Of a stretch of DNA of 64,000 nt, positions 1 through 31,538 are shown one piece after another. The position numbers and the translations under genes were made by a program. The first letter of the stretch is position 1. Each line of letters opens with the position of its first letter. The notes under the pieces were generated by a model. The model had not been told where the DNA came from. It did not search any database and saw only the letters and a list, made by a program, of their open reading frames with translations. Origin of the DNA: Candidatus Undinarchaeota archaeon (lineage in GTDB: Archaea; SpSt-1190; JASMDC01); assembly GCA_964519305.1 (NCBI GenBank), contig CAZFHY010000011.1, positions 1 to 64,000 on the forward strand, given 5' to 3'.

Positions 1-1466
1 TGCCGACTGTCCTGTTGCCACCCGACATGGATGTCGCCACCGAAGAGGTTGCTATCACCGAACGCAACATCAGCGAAGTTCTCGCACGCGATGGTGCACA
101 CCGCGCCCCCCAGGCAGTTCATAAGTAGGCATCGCCCGACCGCCTCGCCCCAGCTCTCGTCGCCCTGGGGTTTGGCCAGCAGGCAATATGCGCAGTTCTG
201 ACAGATGAAGGCACCGCGGTCCTCGCAGTTATCAGGATTGATCTCCACCCCCATGAACGATACGTTGTCCTTCATGTTCTTGCACATGAAGTTATTGACG
301 ATGAGAGGGCATACCTTGTACTGGAGAATGCATGTGATGGTGCAGTTGAGAATCTGCTCGCCGTCCCAGATGAACTTCTTCTGTTTCACGTCGTAGTAGA
401 ACCCCTCGTTGATGCACTCGCCGCACTTGTAACAGATATCGAGGCATGACGCTTGGTCGATGTCCACGGGCTGGTCGGACACCTTCTGGATGAGGGCGTC
501 ACCTCCGGTGCAGATGCCCGCGCACATGGGGCCAATGATGAGCGCGCGAACACCACAGGCCATGAAGCAGTTAATACGTTCCTGCTTACCATCCACTGTG
601 ATGCATTCGCAGCATTGGTCCACAAGGGCATTGCACTCGTACTCCACCTGCACCTGCAGCGCTTTCTTCTGCGGGATGAATGAGAAGATACCCTCCATCA
701 TGTTCTCGCACACTTCCCCAAGGAGGGGGGCCGCGAGCGACTTGCACATGCACTTGCTGATGAGGCACTTGTTGAAGGCCTCTCTCCGTTCCTTCGAGGT
801 CTTGGCGCTGCCCGTGCCCGGTATCAGCGTCAAGAGGCACTGACCACAGTTCTTGCATACATTGAAGAGGAGCTCATTGTTGCTCCTACAGGGCGCCTCG
901 CACCCCATGATGTCCTCACAGATCTCGGAGAGGATCAGGTCACCTATACAATGCTCGATCCAGCAATTGCTCTCCTTCGAGTCACCGCCAGAGCCCGAGT
1001 CAGTGATAAAGCAATCCAGGCACCCGCAGCCGATCTCGACGCACTCGTCCGTGCGTACACGGGGGATCCACGAGGAGATGGCGTACTGGCATGGGGGCTT
1101 GAGTATGATGTCGCATAGGGGTTTACCAAGGCACCGGATGAGGCAGGATTTGATCTTATCCTCGGGTTCCAAGGCGCACTTCACGCACTCGATGCGTGTG
1201 CAGAGCTTGGTGCAGAAGTTATCACCACCGCACAGTTCCTTGCACAGGGGATTGATGATGGCGAGCAGCTGACGTATGACGCATTCCTGAAGGCATTCAT
1301 CGCGGGCGGACGAGTCACTTATGCGGATGCACTCACCGCACTCGTAGCACATGTCGAGCATCTCGTCGCCCTTGATCGTGAAGTACTTGCCCGAGGATGC
1401 CGTCGTGGGAAGGAGGAAGAGCAGGAACAGTAAGAGCGCTACCGTCCTTCCTCGTAGAGCCTCCAA
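1..1466 (-). CDS. Secreted Cys-rich helical-repeat protein (partial; runs off the left edge, missing from the ORF track)
   Basis: Translated by hand from TTG at 1466 (RBS GAGGGG upstream): MEALRGRTVALLLFLLFLLPTTASSGKYF..., a signal peptide. The frame is open to position 1 and carries about 7 repeats of CxxCxxC...CxxxC...CxxxC. Confidence 0.85.
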   Translation of the reverse strand, partial: MEALRGRTVALLLFLLFLLPTTASSGKYFTIKGDEMLDMCYECGECIRISDSSARDECLQECVIRQLLAIINPLCKELCGGDNFCTKLCTRIECVKCALEPEDKIKSCLIRCLGKPLCDIILKPPCQYAISSWIPRVRTDECVEIGCGCLDCFITDSGSGGDSKESNCWIEHCIGDLILSEICEDIMGCEAPCRSNNELLFNVCKNCGQCLLTLIPGTGSAKTSKERREAFNKCLISKCMCKSLAAPLLGEVCENMMEGIFSFIPQKKALQVQVEYECNALVDQCCECITVDGKQERINCFMACGVRALIIGPMCAGICTGGDALIQKVSDQPVDIDQASCLDICYKCGECINEGFYYDVKQKKFIWDGEQILNCTITCILQYKVCPLIVNNFMCKNMKDNVSFMGVEINPDNCEDRGAFICQNCAYCLLAKPQGDESWGEAVGRCLLMNCLGGAVCTIACENFADVAFGDSNLFGGDIHVGWQQDSR

Positions 1467-1547
1467 GACTTTCCCCTCAGGCGAGACGCAAAACAGCTCT
1501 CGCTGACCAGTATAGGCTTATTCATTTGCACGCTTTAAACCTTTGGT

Positions 1548-2543
1548 TCATGTGCGTGAAGAGGGGCCCGAATGGGCGGCAAAACCGTCGGTCCCGGCGA
1601 GCGCTTCGGAAGCATTCCCGTCGGCACCAATAACACGCACAGGGCCGCGAGTGACAATGCCGATATCAGCCGACCTGATACCTTTACTGGCAAGTGCCTC
1701 CTGCGCGTTCGCTGCACCATCGGGCGTACAGAACGCGATCAGGGCCCCTGTTGACGAGGACGAACGAGGGTCTATGTCGAACGTTCCCAACACCTTGGCC
1801 ACATCAGCATCCACGAACAGGGCGTCCCCCTGCAGATCAGCCCCGAGTCCCGTGGCCGCTCTCATCTCGCCCAGCGCGCCGAACAGCCCGCCTTCCGTGA
1901 GATCGTGCATACAGACCGCCCACGGACCGATCAGACGGGCCTCCGCCACACAGGTCGCATCCCTTACCGTTCCTCGCAGAACCTCTGCACGCGCGGCCCC
2001 TAGGATCGACTCGACGCGCTCCCGCCGGCTCAAGGCGAGGTGACACGCGGTCTCACCGCCAAGGCCCTTGACGAGCAGGATGTGCATCCCCGGGCGGATG
2101 TTCGCGGGGGAGAGGAGTCGCTCGGTGAACCCCATGACCGTTGTGACTACAACGGGCTCCGCCAGAGCAGGATAGGCGCCGGAGTGGCCACCGATAATTG
2201 AAATGTCCAGGTCACGACATGCCGCGTCCATCTGTGCCGTGATGGTATCCAGGACCGCTACGTCCGCCCCCGGGGGTAGGAGTATGTCAGATACCAGGTA
2301 CTGGGGTGCGGCACCGAACACGGCAACGTCGCTGGCGGAATAGTGGACCGCAAGATAGCCCAGATGGTCCAGCGGCACACCCAGAGCAGGATCGCTGGCG
2401 ATGACCAGGAAACGGTCACCAAGGTCCAATGCACAGGCATCGTGTCCCGGGGCAGGTGGTGCGGCCAACGCGTCCGCATGTGCACCCAGCCTCCCGAGCA
2501 CGTATCGTGCCAACAGATTGGGAGGGAGCTTTCCCACGTCCAC
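1548..2543 (-). CDS. AIR synthase-related (PurM/HypE/ThiL superfamily) protein
   Basis: Motifs GKLP, GHDACAL, ASDP, SDVAVFGA, IIGGHS, MHDLTEGGL. Start moved to GTG 2543 (RBS GGTGAGGG) to remove the overlap with the divergent gene. Confidence 0.85.
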   Translation of the reverse strand: MDVGKLPPNLLARYVLGRLGAHADALAAPPAPGHDACALDLGDRFLVIASDPALGVPLDHLGYLAVHYSASDVAVFGAAPQYLVSDILLPPGADVAVLDTITAQMDAACRDLDISIIGGHSGAYPALAEPVVVTTVMGFTERLLSPANIRPGMHILLVKGLGGETACHLALSRRERVESILGAARAEVLRGTVRDATCVAEARLIGPWAVCMHDLTEGGLFGALGEMRAATGLGADLQGDALFVDADVAKVLGTFDIDPRSSSSTGALIAFCTPDGAANAQEALASKGIRSADIGIVTRGPVRVIGADGNASEALAGTDGFAAHSGPSSRT

Positions 2544-2610
2544 ATCACCCTCACCCACGCAAGATATATAAGGCCGGGGTAGAGCGGAGCATTGACAGGG
2601 GACCCCGATC

Positions 2611-3375
2611 GTGTACGACGTGGAGATCGATGACGGGTACAGGGTGGACGCCCTCGTGACCGATTTCGACAGTACGCTCTCTGTCAAGAACACGACACCC
2701 GGCGTTATGGAGATCATCTACAGACACGCAGATGAACCTGACGCCACCCGCGAGGAGATGGGCGGGCTCATTGACGCTTACTTCGCTGAGAAGCGGGAGG
2801 CCGTCGAGGGTGGAGGGAACATGGAGGAGATGCTAGAACGCTGGAGCCGGATCGAGCGCAAGTACTCGGCCATCGTAGCCCCCTACTTCACGGGCGTCAC
2901 ACGAGAAGAGATGAAAGAGGAAGGGTACAATGTAGAGCTCCGTGAGCATGCGGGGCAGGCGGTGGATCATCTGAGGAGTGCCGGCGTGTCCGTTGCGGTC
3001 GACACGAACAACTGGTCCTCATCACTGGTGACAGCGGCACTTGAGGGTCGTGTGTCCGTTGACGATGTGTACGCGAACCGCCTCGTTTACGGGGACGACG
3101 ATGTATGCACGGGCGAGATGTTGTTCGACAACGTCGACCCTCTGGCAAAGCGTGATGCGTTGCTCGATTACAAACAGAAGACCGGTGCACGACAGGTTGC
3201 ATATGTGGGTGACGACCTCAACGACCTTGCCTGCATGGTGGTGGCAGACATAGCTTTCGCCATCAAACCATCGGATGAGCTCTTGGGGGCCATCCAACAC
3301 TACGGCATTGAGGATCATGTCAGGGTGGTCGAGTCCTGGGACGAGATTGAGGGAGCGTTGCGCACCAACAAGTGA
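2611..3375 (+). CDS. HAD-superfamily phosphatase (phosphoserine phosphatase-like)
   Basis: Motif I DFDSTL, motif III Lys (AKRD), motif IV YVGDDLND. Confidence 0.8.
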   Translation: MYDVEIDDGYRVDALVTDFDSTLSVKNTTPGVMEIIYRHADEPDATREEMGGLIDAYFAEKREAVEGGGNMEEMLERWSRIERKYSAIVAPYFTGVTREEMKEEGYNVELREHAGQAVDHLRSAGVSVAVDTNNWSSSLVTAALEGRVSVDDVYANRLVYGDDDVCTGEMLFDNVDPLAKRDALLDYKQKTGARQVAYVGDDLNDLACMVVADIAFAIKPSDELLGAIQHYGIEDHVRVVESWDEIEGALRTNK

Positions 3376-3513
3376 TCGCTCAGTGACTTCTTTCAATTAC
3401 GTAGGATTAATTGGAATCCGACAAATATCAGTAAATTAGAGGGTCAGTGCTTCAAGTGACCCCCTTTCATCCGTCCGCCCTCGGAGAAATCCTTAAAAAC
3501 AAATCGTTGACCG

Positions 3514-3642
3514 ATGATAACCGTGGAGTCATACGCCCATATCGACTTCCTCAAGGACTTTGATAGTTATTTTGTTACCGAAGGGATCGATCTCAACGAG
3601 GACCTCAACGACCAGTGGGCGGGCTGGATGATCTACTTCTAA
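3514..3642 (+). CDS. Putative 42-aa small acidic protein
   Basis: MITVESYAHIDFLKDFDSYFVTEGIDLNEDLNDQWAGWMIYF*. TTAAAAA lies at 3493-3499 upstream and the codons look coding-like. Confidence 0.4.
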   Translation: MITVESYAHIDFLKDFDSYFVTEGIDLNEDLNDQWAGWMIYF

Positions 3643-3705
3643 AGGGCTGGAAAAGAGCTTCCTTGCACGTATTCATCCTCAGTAAATGGGCGCAGGCCAA
3701 CAAAC

Positions 3706-3713
3706 TATATAAG
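3706..3713 (+). promoter_or_regulatory. TATA box for the pilin-like array
   Basis: TATATAAG preceded by an A-rich BRE-like stretch, about 30 nt before ATG 3743. Confidence 0.55.
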
Positions 3714-3742
3714 GAGCCATGGGCACATCAATCTACAGGGAC

Positions 3743-3958
3743 ATGACGAATCCATTGTCACGTCTGATGCGGGCGAACCGCGGGGAGGAGGAGCAATCCC
3801 TCCTGTTGGTTATCATCGTGGCAGTGATGGTGTTCGCCGTGCTCTGGCTCGCAATCGGAAAGGCGGGACGATCGGTCGCTTTGGTGTTCGCAGGGTTCTT
3901 CAAGATGATCTGGAGCACCATCAAGGGAATGACCGGGATGGATTACCTGTTCAGGTGA
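3743..3958 (+). CDS. Minimal pilin-like protein (class III signal peptide)
   Basis: Basic leader ending NRG, then EEEQS and a hydrophobic helix LLLVIIVAVMVFAVLWL; short amphipathic tail. Confidence 0.65.
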   Translation: MTNPLSRLMRANRGEEEQSLLLVIIVAVMVFAVLWLAIGKAGRSVALVFAGFFKMIWSTIKGMTGMDYLFR

Positions 3959-4158
3959 AGGGCATGGGACGGCTCACCGATCTTGTTCGCAGTCGGCGCG
4001 GCGCTATGGGCGAAGCCATCGAGATTAACTTCTGGACCATCGTCGCTGTTCTCGTTGTGGCCGTTATCGTGTTCACACTCTACAATTTTGCTAGACAGGC
4101 CCAGCCATCCTTCGTTCAATGGTTAGCGGACATCATGGACATGTCCATGGGTGAATGA
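3955..4158 (+). CDS. Minimal pilin-like protein
   Basis: RSRRG/AMGEAIEINFWTIVAVLVVAVIVF; GTGA overlap with the previous gene. Confidence 0.7.
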   Translation: MKGMGRLTDLVRSRRGAMGEAIEINFWTIVAVLVVAVIVFTLYNFARQAQPSFVQWLADIMDMSMGE

Positions 4159-4414
4159 CATGGGCCTGCTCACGAACCGAAGGGGCATCAAGGCCAACGT
4201 GTACGACTTCATGATCTTCGTCATCATCTTCCTGCTGGTGCTAATGCTTGTGTTCACCCTTGCTGGATGGCGGATGGTCGAGATAATTCATAAACCTGCT
4301 CAGCGGATAGGTGACGATACGGCCGGCAAGGCACGGGACAATATGGCCTGGAACGGAGTTAAGAAGTCCACGGGGTTCATCAAGCTCCCAATGGGCGGCC
4401 TCCCCTTCGCGTGA
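4151..4414 (+). CDS. Minimal pilin-like protein
   Basis: NRRG/IKANVYDFMIFVIIFLLVLMLVF. Confidence 0.7.
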   Translation: MNDMGLLTNRRGIKANVYDFMIFVIIFLLVLMLVFTLAGWRMVEIIHKPAQRIGDDTAGKARDNMAWNGVKKSTGFIKLPMGGLPFA

Positions 4415-4458
4415 AATGTCGTGGTAGGTACACCCAATTACCACTACCCAATGACAAC

Positions 4459-4468
4459 TTATATAAAA
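4459..4468 (+). promoter_or_regulatory. Internal TATA box within the pilin array
   Basis: TTATATAAAA in an AT-rich 89-nt gap, followed by RBS GAGGGAG before ATG 4504. Confidence 0.6.
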
Positions 4469-4503
4469 CCTTACGTACATAGTATGTAATAGAGGGAGCA
4501 CTC

Positions 4504-4716
4504 ATGCTACGCACCCTAATCAGGTCGAAACGCGGTGAGCTGGGCGGACCCACCCGCATCAGTCTCAAGAAGATTCTTCCCGCGATCATCATGATGGTGC
4601 TCTTTCTGCTAGTGGGCTTCGCCCTGCTCCGTTCACGCGGTTATCTGGACTTCGAGACCCTTACGGGCACGTTCACCAAGACCGTGGAATCGGGGATGGA
4701 TATAGGAGGGATGTAG
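4504..4716 (+). CDS. Minimal pilin-like protein (candidate major subunit)
   Basis: RSKRG/ELGG...ILPAIIMMVLFLLVGFALL; has its own TATA box and RBS. Confidence 0.7.
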   Translation: MLRTLIRSKRGELGGPTRISLKKILPAIIMMVLFLLVGFALLRSRGYLDFETLTGTFTKTVESGMDIGGM

Positions 4717-4719
4717 CAC

Positions 4720-4911
4720 TTGTACTTACGCTACCTGCACCCATTAAAGAACCTGCGCCGCCTGGGACGCGACCAGCGCGGAATAACCATGTCACGAGAC
4801 ATGCTCATCGGGACCGTGATCGCTCTGCTAATGCTGGCGTTCCTACTCATGGTCATCGGTGACCGGATCGTGCCCATGGCGAACTCAGCGCTCTCTTGGG
4901 GACCAAAATGA
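4720..4911 (+). CDS. Minimal pilin-like protein
   Basis: DQRG/ITMSRDMLIGTVIALLMLAFLLMVI; TTG start after RBS GGAGGG. Confidence 0.7.
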   Translation: MYLRYLHPLKNLRRLGRDQRGITMSRDMLIGTVIALLMLAFLLMVIGDRIVPMANSALSWGPK

Positions 4912-5342
4912 AAGCACATCGCGGGGTCGTGGGTATATTCTACCTCGTCCTCGCGGCAGTGATAACGCTGGCAGTCTCGATCCTCATCATGCAGGCCATG
5001 TATAACCGAGCCGCTAACGCAGGAAAGAAACCGACCGATCAGGGCCTTCAGGGCAGGATCGTCGCTCTCTGCACCCAGCTGACCGGCCCGGACACCTTCG
5101 ATGCCACGGAGACCGTTGAGCTCCCCTCCAAGGTGGACGGCCGAGAGGTCGCTCGCCTCGTGATGATGTACTGCTTCCCGGGAGTATCTCCCGGCGATAT
5201 TACGGTAGAGAATGACTGTTCGCGCGAAGCTCCCGGACACGTTCTCCACTGGTGCGGATCTACCGAGCTGCTGGGTACAAAACGCTTTTCAGCAGAGATG
5301 TCCCGCGATACCGAGTTCGATGTCCGATTGAGGGTGAGCTGA
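4908..5342 (+). CDS. Pilin-like protein with Cys-containing globular domain
   Basis: MKAHRG/VVGIFYLVLAAVITLAV; ATGA overlap with the previous stop; 4 Cys. Confidence 0.7.
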   Translation: MKAHRGVVGIFYLVLAAVITLAVSILIMQAMYNRAANAGKKPTDQGLQGRIVALCTQLTGPDTFDATETVELPSKVDGREVARLVMMYCFPGVSPGDITVENDCSREAPGHVLHWCGSTELLGTKRFSAEMSRDTEFDVRLRVS

Positions 5343-5936
5343 ATGATTGCCGTCGACTCGTTCCGCAAGGTCGTGGGATTCGTCGTCATTCTAGGTCTCA
5401 TCGTTGCTATCATATATGGCGTTGCTTACGAACGGATATCGCGCGTGGGGAACAAGTTCGTAGACATGTTCGCATGCCCGCCGCTTGCGACCTGCGGTAC
5501 TGGCCCGAAGAACCAGTGCCCTCTCTTAGCTAGTCTCGATATGCCGATTCTCACTAAAGGCGATTCGCTCATGGCAGGCAAGTGCCGCCTCCGCATATGT
5601 AACCGGAAGTCCATTGGGGGAGAGCCCAACCGCGACTATAGGGTGGAGGTCTGCCGGAGCGCTGTGGCCAATCCCGGAAAGAAGGAGGTTGCCGAACAGG
5701 AGTGCGTCCTCCTCACTGATCCCCGGGGTAAGGTGAAGCAGTTCAACCTCGCGAAGGAAGGCGTGACCGAGTACGAGTGCGCTAACGTCTGGCGCCCTGC
5801 GGATCTCGATCTCACACGCTCGGAGCGCGAGGTATCGATAGACCTTATAATCAACATCAAGAACAGCACTGGGCTGTTCAAGGTGGTGGACACTGAATGG
5901 AACGTACGCTACCAGCATCCGCTCGACGAAGCATAG
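5343..5936 (+). CDS. N-anchored Cys-rich protein of the pilin array
   Basis: N-terminal TM VVGFVVILGLIVAIIYGV, 8 Cys; no clear basic-Gly leader. Confidence 0.7.
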   Translation: MIAVDSFRKVVGFVVILGLIVAIIYGVAYERISRVGNKFVDMFACPPLATCGTGPKNQCPLLASLDMPILTKGDSLMAGKCRLRICNRKSIGGEPNRDYRVEVCRSAVANPGKKEVAEQECVLLTDPRGKVKQFNLAKEGVTEYECANVWRPADLDLTRSEREVSIDLIINIKNSTGLFKVVDTEWNVRYQHPLDEA

Positions 5937-6127
5937 GCCGACTGACCCGCGGTAAACGTGGCGGGATAGCAGACCAGCCAATCTATGCTTTAGCAACGCT
6001 TATATTGATGGCCGTGTTAATCTACGTCGCGTACACATGGTTATCAAGCAAACCAGAAATGATCACAAATGTCTTCGGAAGGACCCTGGACATGCTTACT
6101 GGGGCCTTTGAGGGGTTTTTAGGATGA
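5897..6127 (+). CDS. Minimal pilin-like protein
   Basis: GKRG/GIADQPIYALATLILMAVLIYVAY plus an amphipathic tail. Confidence 0.65.
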   Translation: MERTLPASARRSIGRLTRGKRGGIADQPIYALATLILMAVLIYVAYTWLSSKPEMITNVFGRTLDMLTGAFEGFLG

Positions 6128-6585
6128 ATACGAAAGGATCTATTGACACGTCGGTCGCAGCCCTTATAGCCATCGTACTTGGTGTAGGCGTTATTGCCTT
6201 CGGTGTCTATGGGCTCAACAAAGGCCAACGGACCTCGGACAACGTTGGCGTCATGGGAGATGCGGCACGAAGTCGCCTCGATCCACGGACGCTAGGTAAG
6301 TGTGCTGACTGGCACGATGATGGATACCCTCTTGGTATCGACGTCCTTCAGTACACCTATGGCTTCCCCACTATGTTTACTGGGCAGAGCATTGCTGGGT
6401 GCAAGAACCTACCGGACAAGATGGCAGACGCCAAGGAAGACGGCGTCCCGAGCTTGAAGTTCAGTGACAGCGATGTGAAGCGATGCGCTACCTACTGTGC
6501 GAAGATCGCACAGGAAAGGGACAAATGCATGTCCCAACGCGATCCGCAGTCCTGTATGGCCGAAGCATTTGCAAAGGTAAGATAA
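6124..6585 (+). CDS. Pilin-like protein, CxxW / C-x3-C-x9-C family
   Basis: MNTKG/SIDTSVAALIAIVLGV; CADW; CATYC-x9-C. Confidence 0.75.
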   Translation: MNTKGSIDTSVAALIAIVLGVGVIAFGVYGLNKGQRTSDNVGVMGDAARSRLDPRTLGKCADWHDDGYPLGIDVLQYTYGFPTMFTGQSIAGCKNLPDKMADAKEDGVPSLKFSDSDVKRCATYCAKIAQERDKCMSQRDPQSCMAEAFAKVR

Positions 6586-6604
6586 CCTTACACGGGGAAC
6601 TACC

Positions 6605-7138
6605 ATGAGGAGACGGGGTACGTTGAGTCAGTGGTTGGGTGGGCGCGCCCACATGAGCGTGGGAACTCGTCGCGCCACTATCAATCTGAGCCTTGGTGTT
6701 CTTGTGGCCATCGTGTTCGTAGTGCTCCTCGTCGCAATGGGTGCCCTTTCTGCAAGTCGTACCAAGAAGGACGTGCAGAACAGGTCCAAGGAGTTCAAGA
6801 CCCAGATACGCTCTCAACTCCTTTCAGCCAATCCCATTGCAAAGGCATGCTCATTATGGTTCACACAGGGACTTGGTATGCCAACGGCAGTCAACTACTA
6901 TAAGGTCCCAAGCTCGTCCAAATATGCCACGTGGGGTTGCTGTGACGATCTGGACGGGCTCGAACACGACAAGCTCAACGCCCAGCGTGTGAACAAATGC
7001 CTCAAGTCGTGCGGTCAGGCACTCTCCCTATTGGAGCGTTGTAGCCATGACTGGGACATCATGGACGGAGGCAAGTACGAGGATGCCCAGGCCTGTTACA
7101 AGTCACGGTTCGATAATGACGTGAGGTGCGCCTCATGA
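6605..7138 (+). CDS. Pilin-like protein, CxxW / C-x3-C-x9-C family
   Basis: RRA/TINLSLGVLVAIVFVV; CSLW; CLKSC-x9-C. The start may be ATG 6653. Confidence 0.75.
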   Translation: MRRRGTLSQWLGGRAHMSVGTRRATINLSLGVLVAIVFVVLLVAMGALSASRTKKDVQNRSKEFKTQIRSQLLSANPIAKACSLWFTQGLGMPTAVNYYKVPSSSKYATWGCCDDLDGLEHDKLNAQRVNKCLKSCGQALSLLERCSHDWDIMDGGKYEDAQACYKSRFDNDVRCAS

Positions 7139-7548
7139 GCCGGACCCGCGCCCAAATGAGCTTCATGCCACTAGTCGTGGTCATCCTCGGGATCTTCTTC
7201 CTCACAATCGGGCTCATCCTCATATACAACGCACGCGAGATCCAGAAGTCCGAAAAAGATATCGTCCTGTTCAAGAGCGTTTCATCGATACACAACATCT
7301 GTCGGTTCTGGAAGAATCCGGGACTTTACGTAGATGTCGCCATGCCTATACAGCTTGGCGAGGCCTTCGAGTCTGCGGGGCTTAACGCGGTCTATCCCTG
7401 CTCAAACACTAACGCAGACGGCATCAGGAACTGCATGTTGAAATGCGAGGCGCTGGAGCGGCTCGTGATGGTATGCAACATCCATGGCAACGATAGGAAC
7501 GTCGAAGAATGCAGCTCCACGAACATAAGGAGCCTGCTGATGAAATGA
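7135..7548 (+). CDS. Pilin-like protein, CxxW / C-x3-C-x9-C family
   Basis: MSRTRA/QMSFMPLVVVILGIFFL; CRFW; CMLKC-x9-C; ATGA overlap. Confidence 0.75.
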   Translation: MSRTRAQMSFMPLVVVILGIFFLTIGLILIYNAREIQKSEKDIVLFKSVSSIHNICRFWKNPGLYVDVAMPIQLGEAFESAGLNAVYPCSNTNADGIRNCMLKCEALERLVMVCNIHGNDRNVEECSSTNIRSLLMK

Positions 7549-7557
7549 GGGAATGCC

Positions 7558-8115
7558 ATGACTAGCGAAGGGCTGATGCGGGCATTGGTTGTGTTCATAC
7601 TGGGACTGGTGGTGCTCGCCGCCGGCGTCCAGATGCTTGGTAGGGCCAAGAAGGTCACCATGAAGAGCGCAGTCATCCCCAGTGATTACCAGGAGCTGAA
7701 ACGCATGAAGGTCCTGGTCGATAACTGCGGGGAGACCGGGTGGGGTGCGGACCTTATCCGTGGCAAGCTCCTCTCAGGGAAGGTCGAGTGCGACACGACC
7801 TGCAAGGCCAACTTTGCAGAACACTACCGTGACATACCCCGGGCCGTGGAAGGTCTCTTCCTTGTGAAGAGCCGCTTCTGCTCCTCCTCTGGCTGCCCGG
7901 CCACGCGCCGGTGTGCCGAGGCGGTGAAATTGGCCAGCATCGGCAGTACATCGACTTATAAAGATAAGTTGAAAGGATACGCTGAAGCGTGTGCCCAGGT
8001 CTGTGCATGGAGCATGCAGAGGCACGAGGTGTGCGCCTCGCAAATGGCTGAGGTGTACACTAAGGGCAGCGGCTTCAGTTCTCCCTGTGCGGACAGGGAG
8101 GGCGAACTACCGTAG
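7558..8115 (+). CDS. Pilin-array protein, C-x3-C-x9-C family
   Basis: N-terminal TM ALVVFILGLVVLAAGV; CAQVC-x9-C; no basic-Gly leader. Confidence 0.7.
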   Translation: MTSEGLMRALVVFILGLVVLAAGVQMLGRAKKVTMKSAVIPSDYQELKRMKVLVDNCGETGWGADLIRGKLLSGKVECDTTCKANFAEHYRDIPRAVEGLFLVKSRFCSSSGCPATRRCAEAVKLASIGSTSTYKDKLKGYAEACAQVCAWSMQRHEVCASQMAEVYTKGSGFSSPCADREGELP

Positions 8116-8127
8116 AGGTGAGGGGAA

Positions 8128-8625
8128 ATGGTTCCATCAACGACATCGAACCGGGGCCAGGGGCAGCCTGTCTGGATCCTGGTGGCCGTTCTTCTGGCGG
8201 TCATCGTGGCAGTGACCATGTACAGGCTCGTCACACGGCTCGACGTGGATGAGCTGCCTGACGTGGACGTTGCGACGGCAACGACCCGATTTATGCAGCA
8301 GTGTCAACAGTGGGATGACATGGAGTGGAACCAGTACAGCAAGCCTAAAGCGGAGGAAGCCAAACATTCCATGGAGTTGTATGCCTGGCGTGCGAACCGC
8401 ATCCTCACGAAGGAAGAAGTGGAGGCGGGAAAGCAGGTCATGCCCTGCGACTGTATAGTCTACCTCCACATGCGAAACCTCGTCGACTACGGGGAGACCA
8501 TCCAGCTGTGGAAGCAGCACAAAGATTGCAATTCCTGGGCCAGGAACACCGGCTGCTCGAAGAACTTCTGCGGAACGGGCGAAGCAGCAGGAGAGTGCAA
8601 GAAGGCCCATGCGTGCCCCACGTAG
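8128..8625 (+). CDS. Pilin-like protein with CxxW motif
   Basis: SNRG/QGQPVWILVAVLLAVIVAV; CQQW; Cys-rich C-terminus; RBS GAGGTGA. Confidence 0.75.
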   Translation: MVPSTTSNRGQGQPVWILVAVLLAVIVAVTMYRLVTRLDVDELPDVDVATATTRFMQQCQQWDDMEWNQYSKPKAEEAKHSMELYAWRANRILTKEEVEAGKQVMPCDCIVYLHMRNLVDYGETIQLWKQHKDCNSWARNTGCSKNFCGTGEAAGECKKAHACPT

Positions 8626-9214
8626 TCCCTACCGACGCGCCACCATCGACGTTTTCGGGCTGGTCGCTCTCGCAATATTCGGTCTAATAGCGGCCGTTCT
8701 TCTCATCCGTTTCACTGGGCTCACCACGGGCGCATTGGGCGAGACCCATGCCGCCAAGAACATCAATGAGATCGTCGTAGGGGCACGAAAGGCCTGTAGG
8801 GACGGTGAGGCCGTCGTGAGCGCCTTCACAGTTCCCGAGCAGTACGCGTACGTGGTACGCACCTGCGACCTGTGGGAGTGCGCCGACGGCAACTGCCGGG
8901 ACGAGACCATTGCTGGTCATAACTGGCCCCTGGACGCCGATAGCAAGCGCAAGGTGTTCGACAAGTTCTGCAACGGTCGTGATTCGCCGAACCTACTGGC
9001 CGCCTGCTACATCATCTATGGCGTCCACCACGACTGGGGCCCGTTAGGTCAGCTCATGGGATGGAAGCGCATAGTCGCACAGACACGCAAATGCGAGAAC
9101 ATCCACTGCGGTATACCTTATGACATCAACCTCATCATGCCCGGAAAGCAGAAGTACCGCATGAACATAGTCAGGGACGGCGAAGCTCTGGTCGGGAGGA
9201 AGTACGATGTCTAA
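8609..9214 (+). CDS. Pilin-like protein (alpha/beta Cys scaffold)
   Basis: RRA/TIDVFGLVALAIFGLIAAVLLI; helix ending RKAC, followed by beta-type segments with paired Cys. Confidence 0.75.
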   Translation: MRAPRSPYRRATIDVFGLVALAIFGLIAAVLLIRFTGLTTGALGETHAAKNINEIVVGARKACRDGEAVVSAFTVPEQYAYVVRTCDLWECADGNCRDETIAGHNWPLDADSKRKVFDKFCNGRDSPNLLAACYIIYGVHHDWGPLGQLMGWKRIVAQTRKCENIHCGIPYDINLIMPGKQKYRMNIVRDGEALVGRKYDV

Positions 9215-10502
9215 GCTCCTAGGCCGCAAGCGAGCCCTCCTGGGCATCAAGTTCTGGTTCATGGTATTTGTGGTCATGGCGTTCATGGTCGCTGTGAGCA
9301 TGGCCATGAACATCCTCTATGTAGGTCAGACCGTGCGGGCCGCGGACGAGCTCGGCCGGATCAAGACGTACATGGAGGCCGTTTGCCACGGGAACGTAGG
9401 CGACTACCGTTCCTTCGGCGCCCCACCGTTCGGTGTGATCGTCCGGGTTGACTCTTGTGATAAGGTGCTCGCAAAGAGCGCGGTCCGAGGCGCGGTGGGT
9501 GTTGGCGTGATGACAAAACACATAACATCAATCGCCAACATGGGAAAGAAGCCCAAGGCGCTCAAGCAGATGGCCGACAAGGCAGACGACCTCGCGAAGA
9601 TGTCGGGCTCAAATGTGAAGACCGCCACTGATGCCGCCCGGATAACCGAGGCCAACCAGGCGCTTACCAAGAACCTGGCCATGTTCAAGGATCCGAGCAA
9701 GAGCCTCTTCCAGATTCCTGTCCCCTCGAAGATGGCAGGGGTCCACAACAAGGTAGTGATGGCCTTGGACAAGACCGGTATCGTCTCGGCCAACGGTGCC
9801 AAGGCCCAGAAACACATCGTAGAGATCTACAAGATACAGGGCCAGCTGGGCCGTACCAAGGACGCAGCCCAAGCGGCCAAGCTGTATGCTCAATGGGGCA
9901 ACCATGCCGACGAGGCCTACAAGCTCGCACACACGGCCGGCAGGTTCGGCACGGGGATGAAGTTCACCCAGGGAGCCCTGTACACGAGCTGTGTGGGCAC
10001 GTCCCTTGCGGGCTATGTCAAGGAAGTGGATGTCGTACCTGAAGGGGCACAGAAGGCCATTGAGGACGTCCATACGGCCACACGCGACCTAATCGCTGAT
10101 AATGTGGGGCCCGCGGGCGGGACTGTGAGCGCCCTCCCCGCCGAAGGTGTACCCTGCCTTGCCTACTCGCTCTCGAAGGGTGCAAGCCTGAAGGGCGCCA
10201 CCGGCTTCCTTGGTGGCGCTGTCACGAGCACGGCCTTCAACATCCTTGGTGGTCGGATGCTCGGTCAGTCGGCCGCCATGATCTCAAGCTTTGCCACCCG
10301 GTGCCCGGGAGCAACCAACGGCCTGGCCATCTGTATCCAGAAGTCCAAGTGTGAGAGCGAGGAGAAAGGCCCGTGCTCCGCTTGCGATGTGATATCATGT
10401 CGTGTTCCGATCAACGTGGAGTCCCGCCCCTTCGATCCGAAGATAACGGTCTCCCATGAGGGTGACGTCGTGAAGCTCAACGGGGGTGTAGAGCCATTCT
10501 GA
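9207..10502 (+). CDS. Pilin-like protein with large inserted Gly/Ala/Lys-rich domain
   Basis: RKRA/LLGIKFWFMVFVVMAFMVAV; both termini align with the 8609-9214 scaffold. Confidence 0.75.
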   Translation: MSKLLGRKRALLGIKFWFMVFVVMAFMVAVSMAMNILYVGQTVRAADELGRIKTYMEAVCHGNVGDYRSFGAPPFGVIVRVDSCDKVLAKSAVRGAVGVGVMTKHITSIANMGKKPKALKQMADKADDLAKMSGSNVKTATDAARITEANQALTKNLAMFKDPSKSLFQIPVPSKMAGVHNKVVMALDKTGIVSANGAKAQKHIVEIYKIQGQLGRTKDAAQAAKLYAQWGNHADEAYKLAHTAGRFGTGMKFTQGALYTSCVGTSLAGYVKEVDVVPEGAQKAIEDVHTATRDLIADNVGPAGGTVSALPAEGVPCLAYSLSKGASLKGATGFLGGAVTSTAFNILGGRMLGQSAAMISSFATRCPGATNGLAICIQKSKCESEEKGPCSACDVISCRVPINVESRPFDPKITVSHEGDVVKLNGGVEPF

Positions 10503-10504
10503 GG

Positions 10505-10987
10505 TTGCTCGCGGCCAAGCGCGGCCAGGCATCAACCGTGTCCGAATCCCTGTCGGAGTTCGCCAAGTTCGTGGCCGCCATCATAGTATTCGCCCTCGTA
10601 CTCGGGGCGTTCCTCGCTCTGCTCGTGAATATGCATAAGCTGTCACTCATCATGAACGCCCGCATCGTGGCCGATGCCATAGCTGGCGCTATCGCAGCGG
10701 TGTCCACAGCACCTGACCAGGCTTCGTTCTGCTATACGGTCCCATCGTTCGCTACATACCGCGTCGTCATCGGTGGCGGAGCCGTGCTGGTAGTGCAAGC
10801 AGGGGAACAGGCTTTCGGTATATCTCCTTATCCCGTCCCTGGCGTGGAGCCTACGGAGCTACTCGTTGGCAAGGACCAGGTGAGCGCTGTGATCGTTATT
10901 CGCAAGATACGCGTGGGCGCCTCCGAGCAGATATCGGTAACGGCCCCGGAGGAGTTCGAACTAAAGCGTTGTGCGGAGGTAATCTAG
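10505..10987 (+). CDS. Pilin-like protein
   Basis: AKRG/QASTVSE, close to the canonical archaeal [KR]GQ class III motif, followed by a long hydrophobic helix. Confidence 0.75.
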   Translation: MLAAKRGQASTVSESLSEFAKFVAAIIVFALVLGAFLALLVNMHKLSLIMNARIVADAIAGAIAAVSTAPDQASFCYTVPSFATYRVVIGGGAVLVVQAGEQAFGISPYPVPGVEPTELLVGKDQVSAVIVIRKIRVGASEQISVTAPEEFELKRCAEVI

Positions 10988-10988
10988 G

Positions 10989-12623
10989 ATGCTCGAGGAA
11001 CAGGTGTTCATTATCGTGATGGTCATTCTCCTGGTGACCATCGTAGGTGGCGGTGTATCCGCCTGGTTCAAGTTCACCGAGTCCATCGAGAGCGACATAG
11101 AGTTCAGGGCCGCCGTCAAGGTGGCGCACAGGCTCGCGGGCTCATCACAATGCCTTACCTACCTGTCCGCGACACAACGCGCAAGCAAGAACGTGCTCGA
11201 CGCTAACAAGCTCAAGCTCGCCAACGAAATCTATGGCAGCGACCGTTCCAAGGGCCTTCTTTCCCTAGGGGGTATCCTGGGACTCGGGAGCGCAGACGGG
11301 AACCTTCCCCGGGAACACCCGTGCGCCTTCCTCATGGGATTCAGATGGCAGGCCCACATAGTCGACCTTGAGTTCTTCTCCGATATGGAAGATGAGAAGC
11401 GAGAGGAGCTCTCTGAACGGTACGGCTGTCTACTAGCCAAGGATTCGTGCTTGTGGGATATGGGGAAACCCTTCAGCTTCTCCCCGCGCCTTGAGCATCT
11501 CGAGGCGAAGGACGCCGAGGAACGGAGCGATGACCACTTCTGCAGCGGCCAGGACTGGTGCGCGAGCATGAAGAACAGCTTGGACAAATGCCTCAGTAAA
11601 GGGGACGAGGACCTCAAAGGGCTATCCAATCCAACGGCCCCCGTGAAGATCCCTATCACCATCGCCATCACCAACGAGATCGGCCAGCTCGAGAAGCATA
11701 TGGGCTATCTCCAGGTAGTGGTCATACCCAGCGACCGCCACTGTACTCGCGAGGATTACGGTGAGCGCGCTTTCTACATGGGGGAGAACAAGGCGATAAT
11801 CGGTAAGGAATGCTGTCTCTTTGACCTCCAGGAAGGAGTGTGTCGCGGGAACCTGCGTGCAGCGCACGCGGTCCAGGCCAAGTTCGCCCGCACGGTGTAC
11901 ATTTTCTCAGGGGTCGGGACGCTCGCTAATCTCATCACCGGCCACTGCCCGGAGTACGAGTATCTCGCGAAGGATGACTACATCGCGTGCGGGTGTGAGA
12001 ACAAAGGGCAGCCGATGGAGGTAATCGGCCTCGACGGCCCCCAAGTCGTCGGAACTGGTTGCCCTAGGAACAACTTCTTCGCCGCAAAGGTTCAGAACCG
12101 CAACTGGGAGAAGCCCGCAACCGTGAAGGCCATCAAGCTCACAGCCGGCGGTAACGACTATCTACCCTGTACGAAGGAAACATGTGGTCTTCCAACGGGA
12201 ACAATCTGGGTGAAACCCTCTGAGGAGGTGGATCCCCGCTCAGTGGCCACCTACATGTTCGGTGTGCCGGCCGAGGATCTTTCCGGCGACGAGGCCGAGG
12301 TCACCATCACCATGGAGTATTCTGTCCCTAAGATATCCTCACCCTACAAGAAGCCTAAGGACTGCCGGGAGTCGGGGCACCTGTACGTGTGCACCCACAC
12401 CCTAAAAACGACCTATCCCGCCACCGGGTGTGTCGGGGAGGGATTGAAGGACGCGTGCATGGGCCAGATATGCAGCAAGGACCAAGTGTGTTGTTCTGCG
12501 GGCGGATGCATCTCCAAGGAGCGCAAGACCCATTGCGAGGCAGCGGTCACCGGTTGGGACAGCCTGAAGAAGGAAGGCGAGGCCCTCATGAAGGGCAGTC
12601 TGGAGGACGAGAAGGATGCATAG
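10989..12623 (+). CDS. Large Cys-rich N-anchored protein of the pilin array (minor pilin/adhesin-like)
   Basis: MLEEQVFIIVMVILLVTIV TM; RLAGSSQCLTY...VLDANKL; many Cys; RBS GGAGGT. Confidence 0.75.
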   Translation: MLEEQVFIIVMVILLVTIVGGGVSAWFKFTESIESDIEFRAAVKVAHRLAGSSQCLTYLSATQRASKNVLDANKLKLANEIYGSDRSKGLLSLGGILGLGSADGNLPREHPCAFLMGFRWQAHIVDLEFFSDMEDEKREELSERYGCLLAKDSCLWDMGKPFSFSPRLEHLEAKDAEERSDDHFCSGQDWCASMKNSLDKCLSKGDEDLKGLSNPTAPVKIPITIAITNEIGQLEKHMGYLQVVVIPSDRHCTREDYGERAFYMGENKAIIGKECCLFDLQEGVCRGNLRAAHAVQAKFARTVYIFSGVGTLANLITGHCPEYEYLAKDDYIACGCENKGQPMEVIGLDGPQVVGTGCPRNNFFAAKVQNRNWEKPATVKAIKLTAGGNDYLPCTKETCGLPTGTIWVKPSEEVDPRSVATYMFGVPAEDLSGDEAEVTITMEYSVPKISSPYKKPKDCRESGHLYVCTHTLKTTYPATGCVGEGLKDACMGQICSKDQVCCSAGGCISKERKTHCEAAVTGWDSLKKEGEALMKGSLEDEKDA

Positions 12624-13215
12624 GGAGTCCATCCGACGTTTCCTGGCCCGGGCACGCCGGTCCCGCCGCGGTATGGGGATGGGGACCGCCTTCACTGCCG
12701 GTCTAACCATCATGACCGTTGGGCTCGCCCTCATAGTCGCGACCTCCCGTATCAAGGTCAACGTCATGCTCGCAGAGGAGCAGGCATGGGACCCAACCTA
12801 CCAGCTCCTCCTCTCTCTGGCCGAGTCCACCGTTGTGATACGTGAGGGCGACCATCGTGCAGTGCTGAGCATGTTCGACATCCTATCCATGGTGGGTGCG
12901 ACACAACAGTCCAAGGTAGTCGTTCGTGTGAAGGGAAAGAGCGTTACCGTTGACGTGAACGAACTGCTGGAGAAGAAGCTCAAACGTCCTTTCGAGCTCA
13001 TCGGCCGGAACCAGGTCCATATCGTGCTCACGGACAACGATCAGAAGAAGGTCATTGTCGAGTACCCTCGACGTAACACCGTGGACTATCGTGCCTGGCT
13101 CGAGAAGGAGAACTTCGAGATTGGCCGCGTGACCTCCGCCCGTATGCTAGTCCCGCTCCCTGACGGTACATCTACAGCCACCCTCCTCCTACAATATGCG
13201 GAGGTGTATTCATGA
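12616..13215 (+). CDS. Pilin-like protein
   Basis: RSRRG/MGMGTAFTAGLTIMTVGLALIV. Confidence 0.7.
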   Translation: MHRESIRRFLARARRSRRGMGMGTAFTAGLTIMTVGLALIVATSRIKVNVMLAEEQAWDPTYQLLLSLAESTVVIREGDHRAVLSMFDILSMVGATQQSKVVVRVKGKSVTVDVNELLEKKLKRPFELIGRNQVHIVLTDNDQKKVIVEYPRRNTVDYRAWLEKENFEIGRVTSARMLVPLPDGTSTATLLLQYAEVYS

Positions 13216-14501
13216 TGCGGCGCCGTCTCAATATCGGCCGTTCCCGCTCAACAGTCGGTTGGTTCCTATGGCTCGCCCACGCGACCCGCGGTGTTGCCCC
13301 GGCAGTGCTCATGCTAGGGGCATCGGTCGCGCTCACCATCGGGATGTCCATGTACGTAACCGCCAAGCTCCAGGGTGATGCGGTCGTGAAGTCCATCACA
13401 CAGGAGGCGAAGATACTCAAGCGGATTCATATCAACGAGGCTGCGCGGCTCTACGCACGCCAGTCCATCAGGACCGTGGTGAACCAGGCCGTGGCAGATG
13501 TTCTGCGTTACGGGGGTTTCACGGACCCCGCCTTTACCACTCTTGGGACCGCGACCGTAAGCCAGAACAAGGTCGTGCTGTTCGAGAAATGCGAGCAACA
13601 AGGTGGGGGCGATGTGACGTGGAAGAAAGCGTGCGAGCAGGAGCTCGATCCGTTCTTGGAGAGCGATGTCACGGTCATTACAGAGCGCGCTCGCGAGAGC
13701 ATAGGGCAGCTTGTGCCCGAACGTGTCGGTGCCGCTGTAGCTGCGCACAACCGAGAGGATCAGGACTCCATGATCCGTCTCACATCACCGGACATCCATA
13801 TGGACTTCAACGATGATGCTGTGTCTGTCATCGTCCCGCTCAACATCACTACTTACCTGGCAAACAAGCTGGGAGTTGTCTCATCGCCCGACTATATTTC
13901 CGAGACGGTACAGGTGCGCATGATGAAGCTCTTCGAGGTCGGGCTGGATGTGTCAAGATTGGACCTTCATGAACGTACCCAGGAGGCACTGTGCGGCGTA
14001 TGCGACCGCTACCCGGATCGGCGCCCGATGGCAAAGGACCTGCGCACCATCACGGACGAGGCCCTCGACAAGATCGAGGAAGAGTATGCTGAGGAGTATG
14101 CGGATGACGGTATCGCGATCACAATCACTCTTATCGATGGGACTCTGTTCCATATATTACCCAAAAAACCGTTCGATCAGGCTGAAGAGGACGGTGTGAA
14201 GGTAGTAGACTGGAAGGAGCCGGAAGCAGATGACGCACCCGTCCCCTGGCAACTATACATGAACGGCGAGGTGGCCGAGGATCCTGCGAGCGGGAAGAAG
14301 AGCGGCCGATACGCCCTTGGGGCCGATCTTGCCATCCATGTACGTGCGGAGGACCAGCGCACCTACCTACCTTACTTAGTACAGCGTGGTACGAAGATGG
14401 ATTACGAGTACCGGCCAATCGCTGTGGAGTTCGTACTCAAGAAGCGTGTGTGGGAGGGCGACGATTCGAAGTGCTCCCTCACTGCCGAGTGCGAGGGATA
14501 G
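13212..14501 (+). CDS. Large pilin-like protein, last gene of the array
   Basis: ATRG/VAPAVLMLGASVALTIGMSMYV; ATGA overlap. Confidence 0.7.
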   Translation: MMRRRLNIGRSRSTVGWFLWLAHATRGVAPAVLMLGASVALTIGMSMYVTAKLQGDAVVKSITQEAKILKRIHINEAARLYARQSIRTVVNQAVADVLRYGGFTDPAFTTLGTATVSQNKVVLFEKCEQQGGGDVTWKKACEQELDPFLESDVTVITERARESIGQLVPERVGAAVAAHNREDQDSMIRLTSPDIHMDFNDDAVSVIVPLNITTYLANKLGVVSSPDYISETVQVRMMKLFEVGLDVSRLDLHERTQEALCGVCDRYPDRRPMAKDLRTITDEALDKIEEEYAEEYADDGIAITITLIDGTLFHILPKKPFDQAEEDGVKVVDWKEPEADDAPVPWQLYMNGEVAEDPASGKKSGRYALGADLAIHVRAEDQRTYLPYLVQRGTKMDYEYRPIAVEFVLKKRVWEGDDSKCSLTAECEG

Positions 14502-30012: not shown

Positions 30013-30597
30013 ATGGAGCTCACCGAGGCGCTGGCCACCCGACGGAGCGTGCGAAAGCTCGACCCGGAGCCCGTTCCACGGGAGATCATCGAGGAGCTTG
30101 TGAGCTTAGCTACCATGGCCCCAAACGCCCATAACTCCCAGCCATGGCAGTTCGTGGTTGTGGATAAGATGCGCGAGTCTCTTGTGGACGCTCTGGCATC
30201 GGGCCTAAGGAGCGACCTACTAGGTGAAGGGGAGAGTCCTGATGAAGCTCAGCAGATCGCGGAGGCCAAGACTGGCCGGTTCCGACACCCGCCAGCGCTC
30301 CTGCTCGTTTGCCTGGACGCACAGCGGATCAAGGCCGGGCCGCGTCAGGATGCAGAACGGCTCCTAGCAGTGCATAGCGTCGCTGCCGCAATCCAGAACC
30401 TGCTGCTGGCCGCCCATGATCGGGGTCTGGCCACCTGCTGGTACTGTGCACCCGCATTCTGCCCTGAGACAGTGCGAAAGGCACTGGACCTATCGCCAGA
30501 CGTTGAACCCCAGGCACTGGTGGCGCTCGGCAGGCCGGCAGAGGATCCCACATCACCCCGCCGCCGCCCGCTTGCGGAGGTTCTGGTGTGGCGATGA
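30013..30597 (+). CDS. Nitroreductase-family protein, FbiB C-terminal domain/FbiE-like
   Basis: RRSVR, APNAHNSQPWQF, SVAAAIQNLLLAAH..GL.TCWYCAPAFCPETVR.AL; ATGA-coupled to cofD. Confidence 0.8.
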   Translation: MELTEALATRRSVRKLDPEPVPREIIEELVSLATMAPNAHNSQPWQFVVVDKMRESLVDALASGLRSDLLGEGESPDEAQQIAEAKTGRFRHPPALLLVCLDAQRIKAGPRQDAERLLAVHSVAAAIQNLLLAAHDRGLATCWYCAPAFCPETVRKALDLSPDVEPQALVALGRPAEDPTSPRRRPLAEVLVWR

Positions 30598-31538
30598 CCC
30601 GGGCGTGCGTTCTCTGCGGGGGTGTAGGTGCGGCCCGTTTCCTTACGGGCCTTGTGCGTGTCATTCCCCCAGAGGATATCGGATGTATCGTGAACACCGG
30701 CGACGACATCGATGTCTGGGGCGCGCGCGTATGCCCGGATGTGGACATAGTAACGTATACCCTTGCTGGGATCGTGGACCGGGACAAGGGCTGGGGTGTA
30801 GCGGGCGATACGTTCACGTGCCTTGAGGCCATGGTGCGCCTGAAGGAGATGGGCTGGTTCCGATTGGGGGATGCCGATCTTGCTCTGTCACTAGTACGTA
30901 CTCAGCTTCTTGGGGCCGGACGAGAGCTTGAGGACGCGATTGCTGAGATAGTCCATCGTTTGGGTGTCGTACCTACAATCGTCCCCATGTCAAACGAACG
31001 TGTGGAGACGCGCGTGACAACACCCGCGGGCGAGATGTCGTTCGAAGAATACTTCGTACGTGAGGGCTGCCGGCCCGAGGTCCGAAAAGTGCGTTACGCA
31101 GGCGCCGACATAGCCCGCCCGAGCCGAGGTGCCGGGCGCCTCATACGCGAGTCAGATGTCCTCCTTATAGCCCCTTCGAATCCGTTGGCCAGCATTGGTC
31201 CGATACTGGCCGTTCCCGGGATGCGTGAGCTAGTGGAGACGTTCAATGGGCCGCGGATTGCGGTCAGCCCCCTTATTGGTGGTAAGACGATCAAGGGACC
31301 CGCTGACCGGATGCTCCGAGCGGCCGGATTCCCTCCTAGCGTGGAAGGACTGGCCACGTTCTACGACGGACTAATCGACGGTTTCGTCATCGACGAGGTC
31401 GATTCTTCAAGCATCCCCGTGCTGGAGGGCCGGGGACTTGCAGTTCATGCGCTCCCCTCGCTCATGGACACGCCCGCCCGGGCAGAGGCGGTGGCCCGGG
31501 GGGCCCTCAAGCTTGCAGAGGAGATCGAACGCCCTTGA
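30594..31538 (+). CDS. cofD: 2-phospho-L-lactate/PEP transferase CofD (FbiA)
   Basis: LCGGVGAARFL.GL, VNTGDD, CPDVD..YTL, WFRLGD.DLA, PSNP..SIGPIL, KGPA. Confidence 0.93.
   Translation: MTRACVLCGGVGAARFLTGLVRVIPPEDIGCIVNTGDDIDVWGARVCPDVDIVTYTLAGIVDRDKGWGVAGDTFTCLEAMVRLKEMGWFRLGDADLALSLVRTQLLGAGRELEDAIAEIVHRLGVVPTIVPMSNERVETRVTTPAGEMSFEEYFVREGCRPEVRKVRYAGADIARPSRGAGRLIRESDVLLIAPSNPLASIGPILAVPGMRELVETFNGPRIAVSPLIGGKTIKGPADRMLRAAGFPPSVEGLATFYDGLIDGFVIDEVDSSSIPVLEGRGLAVHALPSLMDTPARAEAVARGALKLAEEIERP

Follow-up and report, generated by a model that had tools for sequence, protein, structure and literature searches.

A candidate pilin-like surface protein with a Cys-rich scaffold split by a lineage-specific helical domain in a Candidatus Undinarchaeota archaeon

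For host-dependent DPANN archaea, recognising partner cells and staying attached to them is essential. Among described filament systems, the interrupted tip subunits of bacteria come closest to the protein reported here. According to the available excerpts of the respective papers, GspK carries an alpha-domain of ~180 residues between strands in the middle of its pilin sheet and supplies its C-terminal strand in cis (PMC13533445), XcpX/GspK sits atop the tip complex (PMC6211770), and in CpaL (~600 aa) the pilin-like N domain is followed by a middle region of ~470 aa, with the C-terminal strand again donated in cis (PMC13533445). On the archaeal side, excerpts likewise state that ordered type IV filament (T4F) loci are rare in DPANN (Nanobdellati), where pilins are scattered (PMC13705601), and that the metagenome-assembled genomes of the Undinarchaeota study all encode pili, possibly for DNA uptake (PMC7414124). 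We analysed a stretch of 64,000 nucleotides (the window; contig CAZFHY010000011.1, here C11:1-64000) from the genome of a Candidatus Undinarchaeota archaeon (GCA_964519305.1, here G000), focusing on the open reading frame (ORF) at 9207-10502. Its product, hereafter the target, looks like a membrane-anchored, pilin-like surface protein in which a Cys-rich scaffold is split by a lineage-specific helical domain.

A conserved scaffold around a variable middle

The target ORF and its parts were delimited as follows.

9207-10502, plus strand: target, 431 aa, from the ORF list; single copy in its own genome
9207-9341, plus strand: residues 1-45, basic N-terminus (RKRA) and then the only transmembrane (TM)-like hydrophobic helix, resembling a class III signal
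9342-9536, plus strand: residues 46-110, conserved N module with a helix, Cys60, beta-hairpin 67-83, Cys84 and a Gly/Ala-rich helix with K90/R94
9537-10190, plus strand: residues 111-328, lineage-specific middle domain, mostly alpha-helical by prediction, Ala/Lys/Gly-rich, net charge of about +8
10191-10298, plus strand: residues 329-364, Gly/Ala/Ser/Thr-rich connector, conserved family-wide and not TM-like
10299-10502, plus strand: residues 365-431 and stop, conserved Cys-rich beta module with C366, C376, C382, C390, C393 and C398

Homologues of the target were full-length at 96%, 60%, 39% and 39% identity. Among 1.84 billion representative sequences, nine proteins matched, four of them of similar length (60%, 39% and 39% identity, plus one fragment) and five longer (657-775 aa), the long ones matching the target only at N-terminal (~1-115) and C-terminal stretches. 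A profile search of the 17 class genomes detected the family in 15, most of the matches being open frames of 520-750 aa, and as far as sequence searches reach, the family is restricted to this one small archaeal group. A locus search with a 5-row alignment returned the 96% relative as the only match in genome contigs and metagenome contigs. The stretch was present in eight marine or seawater DNA sequencing runs from two studies, from which the DNA itself may derive, with no RNA run among the listed sequencing runs that contain it.

Comparison within the family separated a constant scaffold from a changing middle. The C84-C366 stretch comprised 281 residues in the target and 281-618 across 19 family members, the shortest form being that of the window protein and its closest relatives. 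Alignment of the short with the long subfamily by hhalign gave E 1e-20 and was confident only over residues 7-105 and 330-431, while for residues 111-328 no homology to the long relatives' middle could be detected. Among the short forms, conservation of the middle equalled that of the flanks (56% versus 54-70% identity to relative P0002; 36-37% versus 37-43% to P0003/P0004), which indicates that it is a domain that folds and is under constraint rather than a hypervariable loop. The connector (Gly 19%, Ala 17%) aligned confidently to the long relatives. In an 11-sequence alignment, C60, G62, C84, K90 and R94 were near-invariant and C366, C376, C390, C393, C398 and G426 invariant; in the 19-member alignment, C60, C84, C317, C376, C393, C398 and G426 were invariant. 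The C-terminal module closed with a conserved extreme C-terminus, G-x-[VIFL]-x-x-[FMHIW], and in 16 of the 19 members the chain ran five residues beyond the conserved Gly, finishing on an aromatic or hydrophobic residue. These results, from shallow alignments, confirm at the sequence level a scaffold-plus-inserted-domain architecture that is independently supported within the target family.

The first-pass annotation of this DNA had proposed a pilin scaffold with a Gly/Ala/Lys-rich insert of ~280 aa. The peptides that it quoted all occur in the translations of the target and its upstream neighbour, the C84-C366 length agrees with its estimate, and the composition of residues 111-328 (Ala 16%, Lys 11%, Gly 9%) bears it out. 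The insert also varies among homologues, both in length and in being unalignable between short and long forms. Its placement of motifs was less accurate, since two of the three assigned to the insert, GAVGVG (95-100) and a Gly-rich stretch (330-349), lie in conserved parts. Because GAVGVG and Gly-rich 330-364 are conserved in the long relatives, they belong to the scaffold or connectors and not to the variable part.

The N-terminus had the form of a class III signal, with a basic residue, Gly/Ala at position -1 and ~20 hydrophobic residues (RKRA and then LLGIKFWFMVFVVMAFMVAV; that is, KRA followed by LLGIKFWF...). A [KRH][GA] motif stood directly before the hydrophobic stretch in 13 of the 19 family members. 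Only windows starting at residues 9-23 reached a 19-residue Kyte-Doolittle mean of at least 1.6, indicating a single TM-like segment; outside residues 1-45 the maximum was 1.02 (at 334, in the connector). Additionally, the genome contained four Peptidase_A24 matches over the cut-off (prepilin peptidase genes).

Two independent AlphaFold2 (AF2) runs, based on 11 and 19 alignment rows, agreed on the topology of the target, and the deeper alignment did not improve the model. The N part was predicted as helices 2/4-42 and 45-60 and strands 67-71 and 77-83, the middle as mostly helical apart from one beta-hairpin (165-188), its helical hairpin at 195-244 being better predicted (predicted local distance difference test score, pLDDT, 70-82), and the C module as five strands over 372-426 (pLDDT 75-88). 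The pLDDT was 70-88 in the flanks (70-88 for residues 41-90), below 50 in most of the middle and 28-42 in the connector 329-364. In this model of modest quality, an insertion of 281 residues falls between predicted strands 2 (77-83) and 3 (372-379), where the flanks are conserved and the middle varies, and the predicted order of a long N-terminal helix followed by beta strands fits the pilin fold (mean pLDDT 59-60). A Zn or Fe-S site was considered for the C-x9-C-x5-C-x7-C-x2-C-x4-C pattern and set aside; disulfides are presumed instead, given the predicted extracytoplasmic location of the module and the Cys-richness of most array proteins.

Structure-based searches added little. Foldseek against the PDB gave no match at E 0.001 or better, and a family-profile sequence search of solved structures gave nothing usable (best E 0.076, a de novo helical design). 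In the ESM Atlas, the whole target matched an archaeal cluster at 0.75, and the insert alone had no usable match. A complex prediction of the target ectodomain with two flanking array proteins, run without controls, scored 0.00.

The gene array and its neighbourhood

The target gene lies in a dense array. Its first 8 nt overlap the end and stop codon of ORF 8609-9214, and ORF 10505-10987 begins 3 nt past its own end.

3719-14501, plus strand: array of ~19 ORFs that are closely spaced or overlap, all of them encoding a single hydrophobic helix at the N-terminus
8609-9214, plus strand: upstream neighbour, 201 aa with 8 Cys; such proteins hold the same syntenic position in relatives
10505-10987, plus strand: downstream gene, 160 aa, a conserved array member with BLAST-detectable orthologues (alignment A6)

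Most of the ~19 array proteins carried a basic-Gly/Ala motif before the helix, and 12 contained 2-26 Cys; none of the 19 had a family match in Pfam or NCBIfam. A HAD hydrolase gene and a ChaN-like gene border the array. Orthologues of 8128, 9207, 10505, 10989 and 13212 were BLAST-detectable in the same order in two relatives (G011 and G003), and the array order was also the same in three others (G009, G005 and G014). The array opens with five small ORFs (3719-4911, plus strand; 63-87 aa) that encode hardly more than a basic-Gly motif and one hydrophobic helix and are candidates for the major filament subunit.

Nesting of modules was also observed elsewhere in the array. The G009 orthologue of 10505-10987 (L066:16354-17511) has 385 aa, with an insertion of ~210 residues in an otherwise conserved scaffold, and this insertion contained an SLT transglycosylase domain (Pfam E 1.7e-7, 31.3 bits, cut-off 21.3). 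Together with the middle domain of the target, the nested SLT domain indicates that module nesting in array scaffolds recurs. That a small-genome archaeon should carry a wall-degrading SLT module on a pilin-like scaffold is noteworthy in itself. The 544-aa array protein encoded at 10989-12623 (plus strand) has 26 cysteines and matched no family. Much shorter orthologues in G003 (213 aa) and G011 (324 aa) conserve its N-terminal ~130 residues, and it is another array scaffold bearing extra sequence specific to its lineage.

An ATPase and a polytopic membrane protein accompany the array in several relatives. In G003, the order was a 760-aa ATPase, a 708-aa polytopic membrane protein and then the array. 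The ATPase matched Pfam T2SSE over the cut-off (E 9.4e-11), and its best NCBIfam models were TadA-family (7.3e-33) and FlaI (3.4e-32), both below their own cut-offs. In G009, the other relative in which the DNA upstream of the membrane protein was read, the array was preceded by a 766-aa frame, which was not family-scanned and has the size and position of the G003 ATPase, and by a 730-aa frame lying where the membrane-protein match falls. The membrane protein was also immediately upstream of the array in G011 and G005 and was found in 17 of 17 class genomes. A target homologue lay within 10 kb of it on the same contig in five of 15 genomes (G003, G005, G009, G011 and G014). Genome G000 as a whole contained seven T2SSE and eight T2SSF matches.

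Further genes were noted around these loci. At the start of contig C2 of G000 (1045-5533; L065) are an ATPase of 767 aa and a membrane protein of 726 aa, 36% identical to G003's, and the pair is followed by Cys-rich ORFs of 951 and 658 aa without family matches. Just past the array end, G011 has an SPFH/Band 7 gene (L027:3358-4341; Pfam E 8e-40), a kind of gene that does not adjoin the array in the window, and G003 has a 330-aa ORF (L028:11594-12586).

Genome G000 comprises 3.63 Mb in 42 contigs (99.8% complete, 4.3% contamination), and the window has a G+C content of ~54-63%. Its sister genome has 3.8 Mb, and the 15 other genomes of the class have 0.6-1.2 Mb. Such a large-genome lineage in a reduced-genome class would bear on genome reduction in DPANN, or may signal faulty binning or classification. 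A 2820-aa ORF lying a few kb from the array (18595-27057, plus strand) contains N-terminal Kazal-type protease-inhibitor domains (E 2e-14) and a weak immunoglobulin-like match; its product is predicted to be a giant secreted or surface protein. The genes at 30588-34219, namely CofD, a CofH/MqnC-type (cofG/H-type) radical S-adenosylmethionine (SAM) gene and another radical-SAM gene, point to F420 biosynthesis, unexpected for a lineage classed with reduced symbionts.

Weighing the readings of the target

We hold, with moderate confidence, that the target serves as a minor or tip subunit, of the GspK/CpaL kind, in a divergent archaeal T4F system that the whole class conserves, and that it displays a lineage-specific helical domain. 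The N-terminus would be cleaved after Ala10 by a class III signal peptidase, and the helix would dock into a filament. The small beta module, probably disulfide-stabilised outside the cell, would form the pilin head, from which the helical middle domain of a low-copy minor or tip subunit would be displayed outward to bind a partner surface or substrate. The conserved extreme C-terminus may add the last beta-strand to the head and mediate its docking to adjacent minor subunits; the fixed C-terminal ends in 16 of 19 members invite this docking-strand role, as in a tip complex with PilI/PilJ-type partners, without demonstrating it.

Several observations weigh against this reading, in which the pilin identity itself is something we infer. 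No pilin, archaellin or class-III-signal model matched the target or the 19 array proteins (Pfam E ≤0.1 or 10; NCBIfam E ≤1). The earlier proposal of a pilin scaffold with an insert thus stands in part: AF2 predicts a bipartite Cys-rich module around a helical domain, and the pilin models do not match. The AF2 models are of modest quality (mean pLDDT 59-60; predicted template modelling score 0.40-0.46). No solved pilin appeared among the fold matches, whose lists were filled by the helical hairpin of the insert, so that the flanks were barely tested by these searches. The [KRH][GA] motif was absent from six of the 19 family members, and several array proteins, several of the five small ones among them, had 8-15 partly charged residues between motif and helix, which is atypical for prepilins and class III signals. 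The target homologue and the membrane protein were on different contigs in 10 of 15 genomes, including those of the window and its sister, and in G000 the orthologous ATPase and membrane protein on C2 are followed by unrelated genes, with the array unlinked. Finally, the membrane protein was only weakly T2SSF-like (Pfam E 8.6; hhalign against the genome's T2SSF E 0.0039, probability 8.6%), a likeness to T2SSF platform proteins that is suggestive.

The first-pass annotation had also claimed that the ends of the target align with its upstream neighbour, which would make the neighbour an insert-less paralogue and the target a duplicated neighbour-type gene with a domain inserted into a loop of ~34 residues. 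We consider this origin unlikely. The window pair itself scored at chance level in BLASTP (E 5.9), in hhalign of the family alignment against the neighbour (which recovered the N-terminal register of the first pass, 43-83 versus 46-88, at E 0.15 and probability 0.4%) and in Smith-Waterman comparisons with 1000 shuffles (N flank z 0.10, reached by 448/1000; C flank z 1.15, reached by 136/1000), and the claimed alignment is therefore not above chance. Since the window neighbour has just two sequence homologues in 5.8 billion clusters, proteins at its syntenic position from five other genomes were aligned instead (A5). The results were more favourable at the family level, where A5 matched the target family over the TM helix and N module (84 columns, E 4.5e-5, probability 68.8%) and, without the TM helix, over 46 columns of the N module (P 1.4e-4 to 7e-4). 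The C module gave no match (P 0.37-0.52), and the C-terminal motif matches between target and neighbour are at chance level. As a control, 69 array proteins from six genomes (five family members and 64 others) were scored against the N-module profile. The top two of the 64 were neighbour-position proteins (P 5.2e-4 and 3.8e-3), while the window's own neighbour was outside the top 16, and the best single P after correction for 64 tests was ~0.03. The motif order helix-VC-G...P...C[DE] is common to both families, and the two types of gene are adjacent in the window, G011, G009 and G005; the target homologues of G003 and G014 do not adjoin a neighbour-type gene. A shared flank is thus weakly supported for the N module and not supported for the C module, paralogy with an insert-less neighbour is not established, and the neighbour is possibly a distant relative of the N module only. 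Because long forms are the commonest in the class, replacement or reduction of a domain is a likelier origin of the 281-residue middle than a new insertion.

The function of the protein admits two further explanations. The main alternative, which we regard as possible though rather improbable, is a bitopic, signal-anchored (N-in/C-out) surface or assembly-accessory protein that escapes cleavage and takes no part in a filament. It would be an alignment/stator-type or envelope component of the same apparatus, with a role comparable to that of PilN/PilO, GspL/M or ArlF/G, and would use its variable ectodomain for contact with the envelope or a partner cell. Basic residues before a single N-terminal TM helix fit the positive-inside rule as well as a class III signal, and the incomplete occurrence of the [KRH][GA] motif, the lack of a pilin family match, the separation of array and ATPase in the window's genus and the Cys-rich ectodomains across the array all agree with such a protein. 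However, 19 such proteins lie in one array, five of them of only 63-87 aa and little beyond a helix, a pattern typical of pilin sets and not of accessory proteins; a long helix leading into a small sheet, as predicted here, is pilin-like, and the conserved extreme C-terminus fits a docking strand. The other explanation, also advanced in the first pass, takes the insert as a pre-toxin or pore-forming helical region and the target as a pilus-displayed effector entering a host membrane. It gains some plausibility from the mostly helical insert, from small-xxx-small spacings in the Gly-rich stretch 330-353 and from class relatives that are small-genome, probably host-dependent archaea. The SLT domain in one array orthologue means that effector-like modules do occur on such scaffolds, and an excerpt of PMC12075869 describes Tad pilus tips exposing variable domains that take part in contact-dependent killing in Myxococcus. 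Nevertheless, we consider this explanation highly improbable. No toxin-type family of the pre-toxin, colicin or translocator kind was matched in Pfam (E ≤10, insert alone and whole protein) or NCBIfam, the only weak matches of the target being Pfam DUF6376 (E 0.14) and NCBIfam rodlin (E 0.015, far below its cut-off), and the fold matches were generic helical hairpins. The insert contains no second hydrophobic segment that could enter a membrane (maximum Kyte-Doolittle mean 1.02, versus at least 1.6 for the anchor). Moreover, a variable C-terminal toxin domain is absent: the C-terminus, with its Cys pattern and fixed end, is the most conserved part of the family. For the earlier claim, the outcome is corrective, pointing to an ordinary-looking modular surface subunit and not to a toxin.

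The reading of the target as a minor or tip subunit can be extended to the whole locus, although we regard the extension as doubtful. The array, the ArlI/TadA-like ATPase and the 700-aa membrane protein would then form an undescribed, class-specific T4F machine with ~17 pilin-like subunits, and the target family would be its GspK/CpaL-like apical subunit. The extreme C-terminus would act as a cis beta-strand that licenses tip assembly, the first archaeal case if true, and the middle domain of 281-618 aa would set which partner cell or substrate the filament recognises. Array scaffolds would take up different modules, as one relative does with its SLT wall hydrolase. The machine would be older than genome reduction, because the 3.6-Mb lineage retains it. 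The locus of membrane protein and array, which is preceded by an ATPase in G003 and probably in G009, contains a family with a constant scaffold and a displayed domain that changes with lineage, and this makes the family a candidate contact or specificity determinant of the class.

Comparison with known systems

Archaeal T4F systems have been modelled with MacSyFinder (Sivabalasarma and Albers 2026, PMC13705601), and the core set as given in excerpts of that work is present in the genome, namely an ATPase, a platform-like membrane protein, many pilin-like genes and a class III peptidase. The arrangement differs from the DPANN pattern described in the same excerpts, since in five relatives a single locus comprises the platform-like protein and, behind it, an array of ~15-17 genes; in G003 the scanned ATPase lies directly upstream as well. 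The accessible portion of the Undinarchaeota paper (PMC7414124) does not mention the target family, and we found no description of the array locus in the literature, although the supplementary tables of PMC13705601, which lie outside the excerpted text, could already list it.

Modular pilins such as Streptococcus sanguinis PilB (excerpts of PMC8179133) and, in archaea, the substrate-binding proteins of the bindosome, together with Epd-locus proteins that have adhesin-like domains (excerpts of PMC13705601), likewise combine a pilin N-terminus with an extra domain. Their module is appended C-terminally, whereas that of the target is nested inside the predicted head and belongs to no recognisable known module family.

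CpaL of the Caulobacter Tad pilus (type IVc), one of the PilK homologues with large insertions, resembles the target in its minor-pilin-like N domain, its long middle and its short conserved extreme C-terminus, and the array-associated ATPase scored best to FlaI and TadA models. The two proteins differ in that the conserved C part of the target is a Cys-rich module of ~65 residues and not a strand of 6-10 residues. By analogy, the C-terminus of the target may have a comparable role.

With GspK/XcpX, the target would share an N-terminal pilin helix and a small beta head interrupted by a large alpha domain, in what would be a low-copy tip subunit encoded among minor pilin genes; in the predicted model, the insert starts right after strand 2 and is followed by five strands. 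The target differs in being archaeal, in its 10 cysteines and in its insert of 281 aa (to 618 in relatives). No GspI/J counterparts were identified for it, and neither the GspK/T2SSK models of Pfam and NCBIfam nor the fold searches gave a match. If the reading as a minor or tip subunit is true, the target would provide an archaeal test case for the tip-subunit insertion architecture of bacterial GspK and CpaL.

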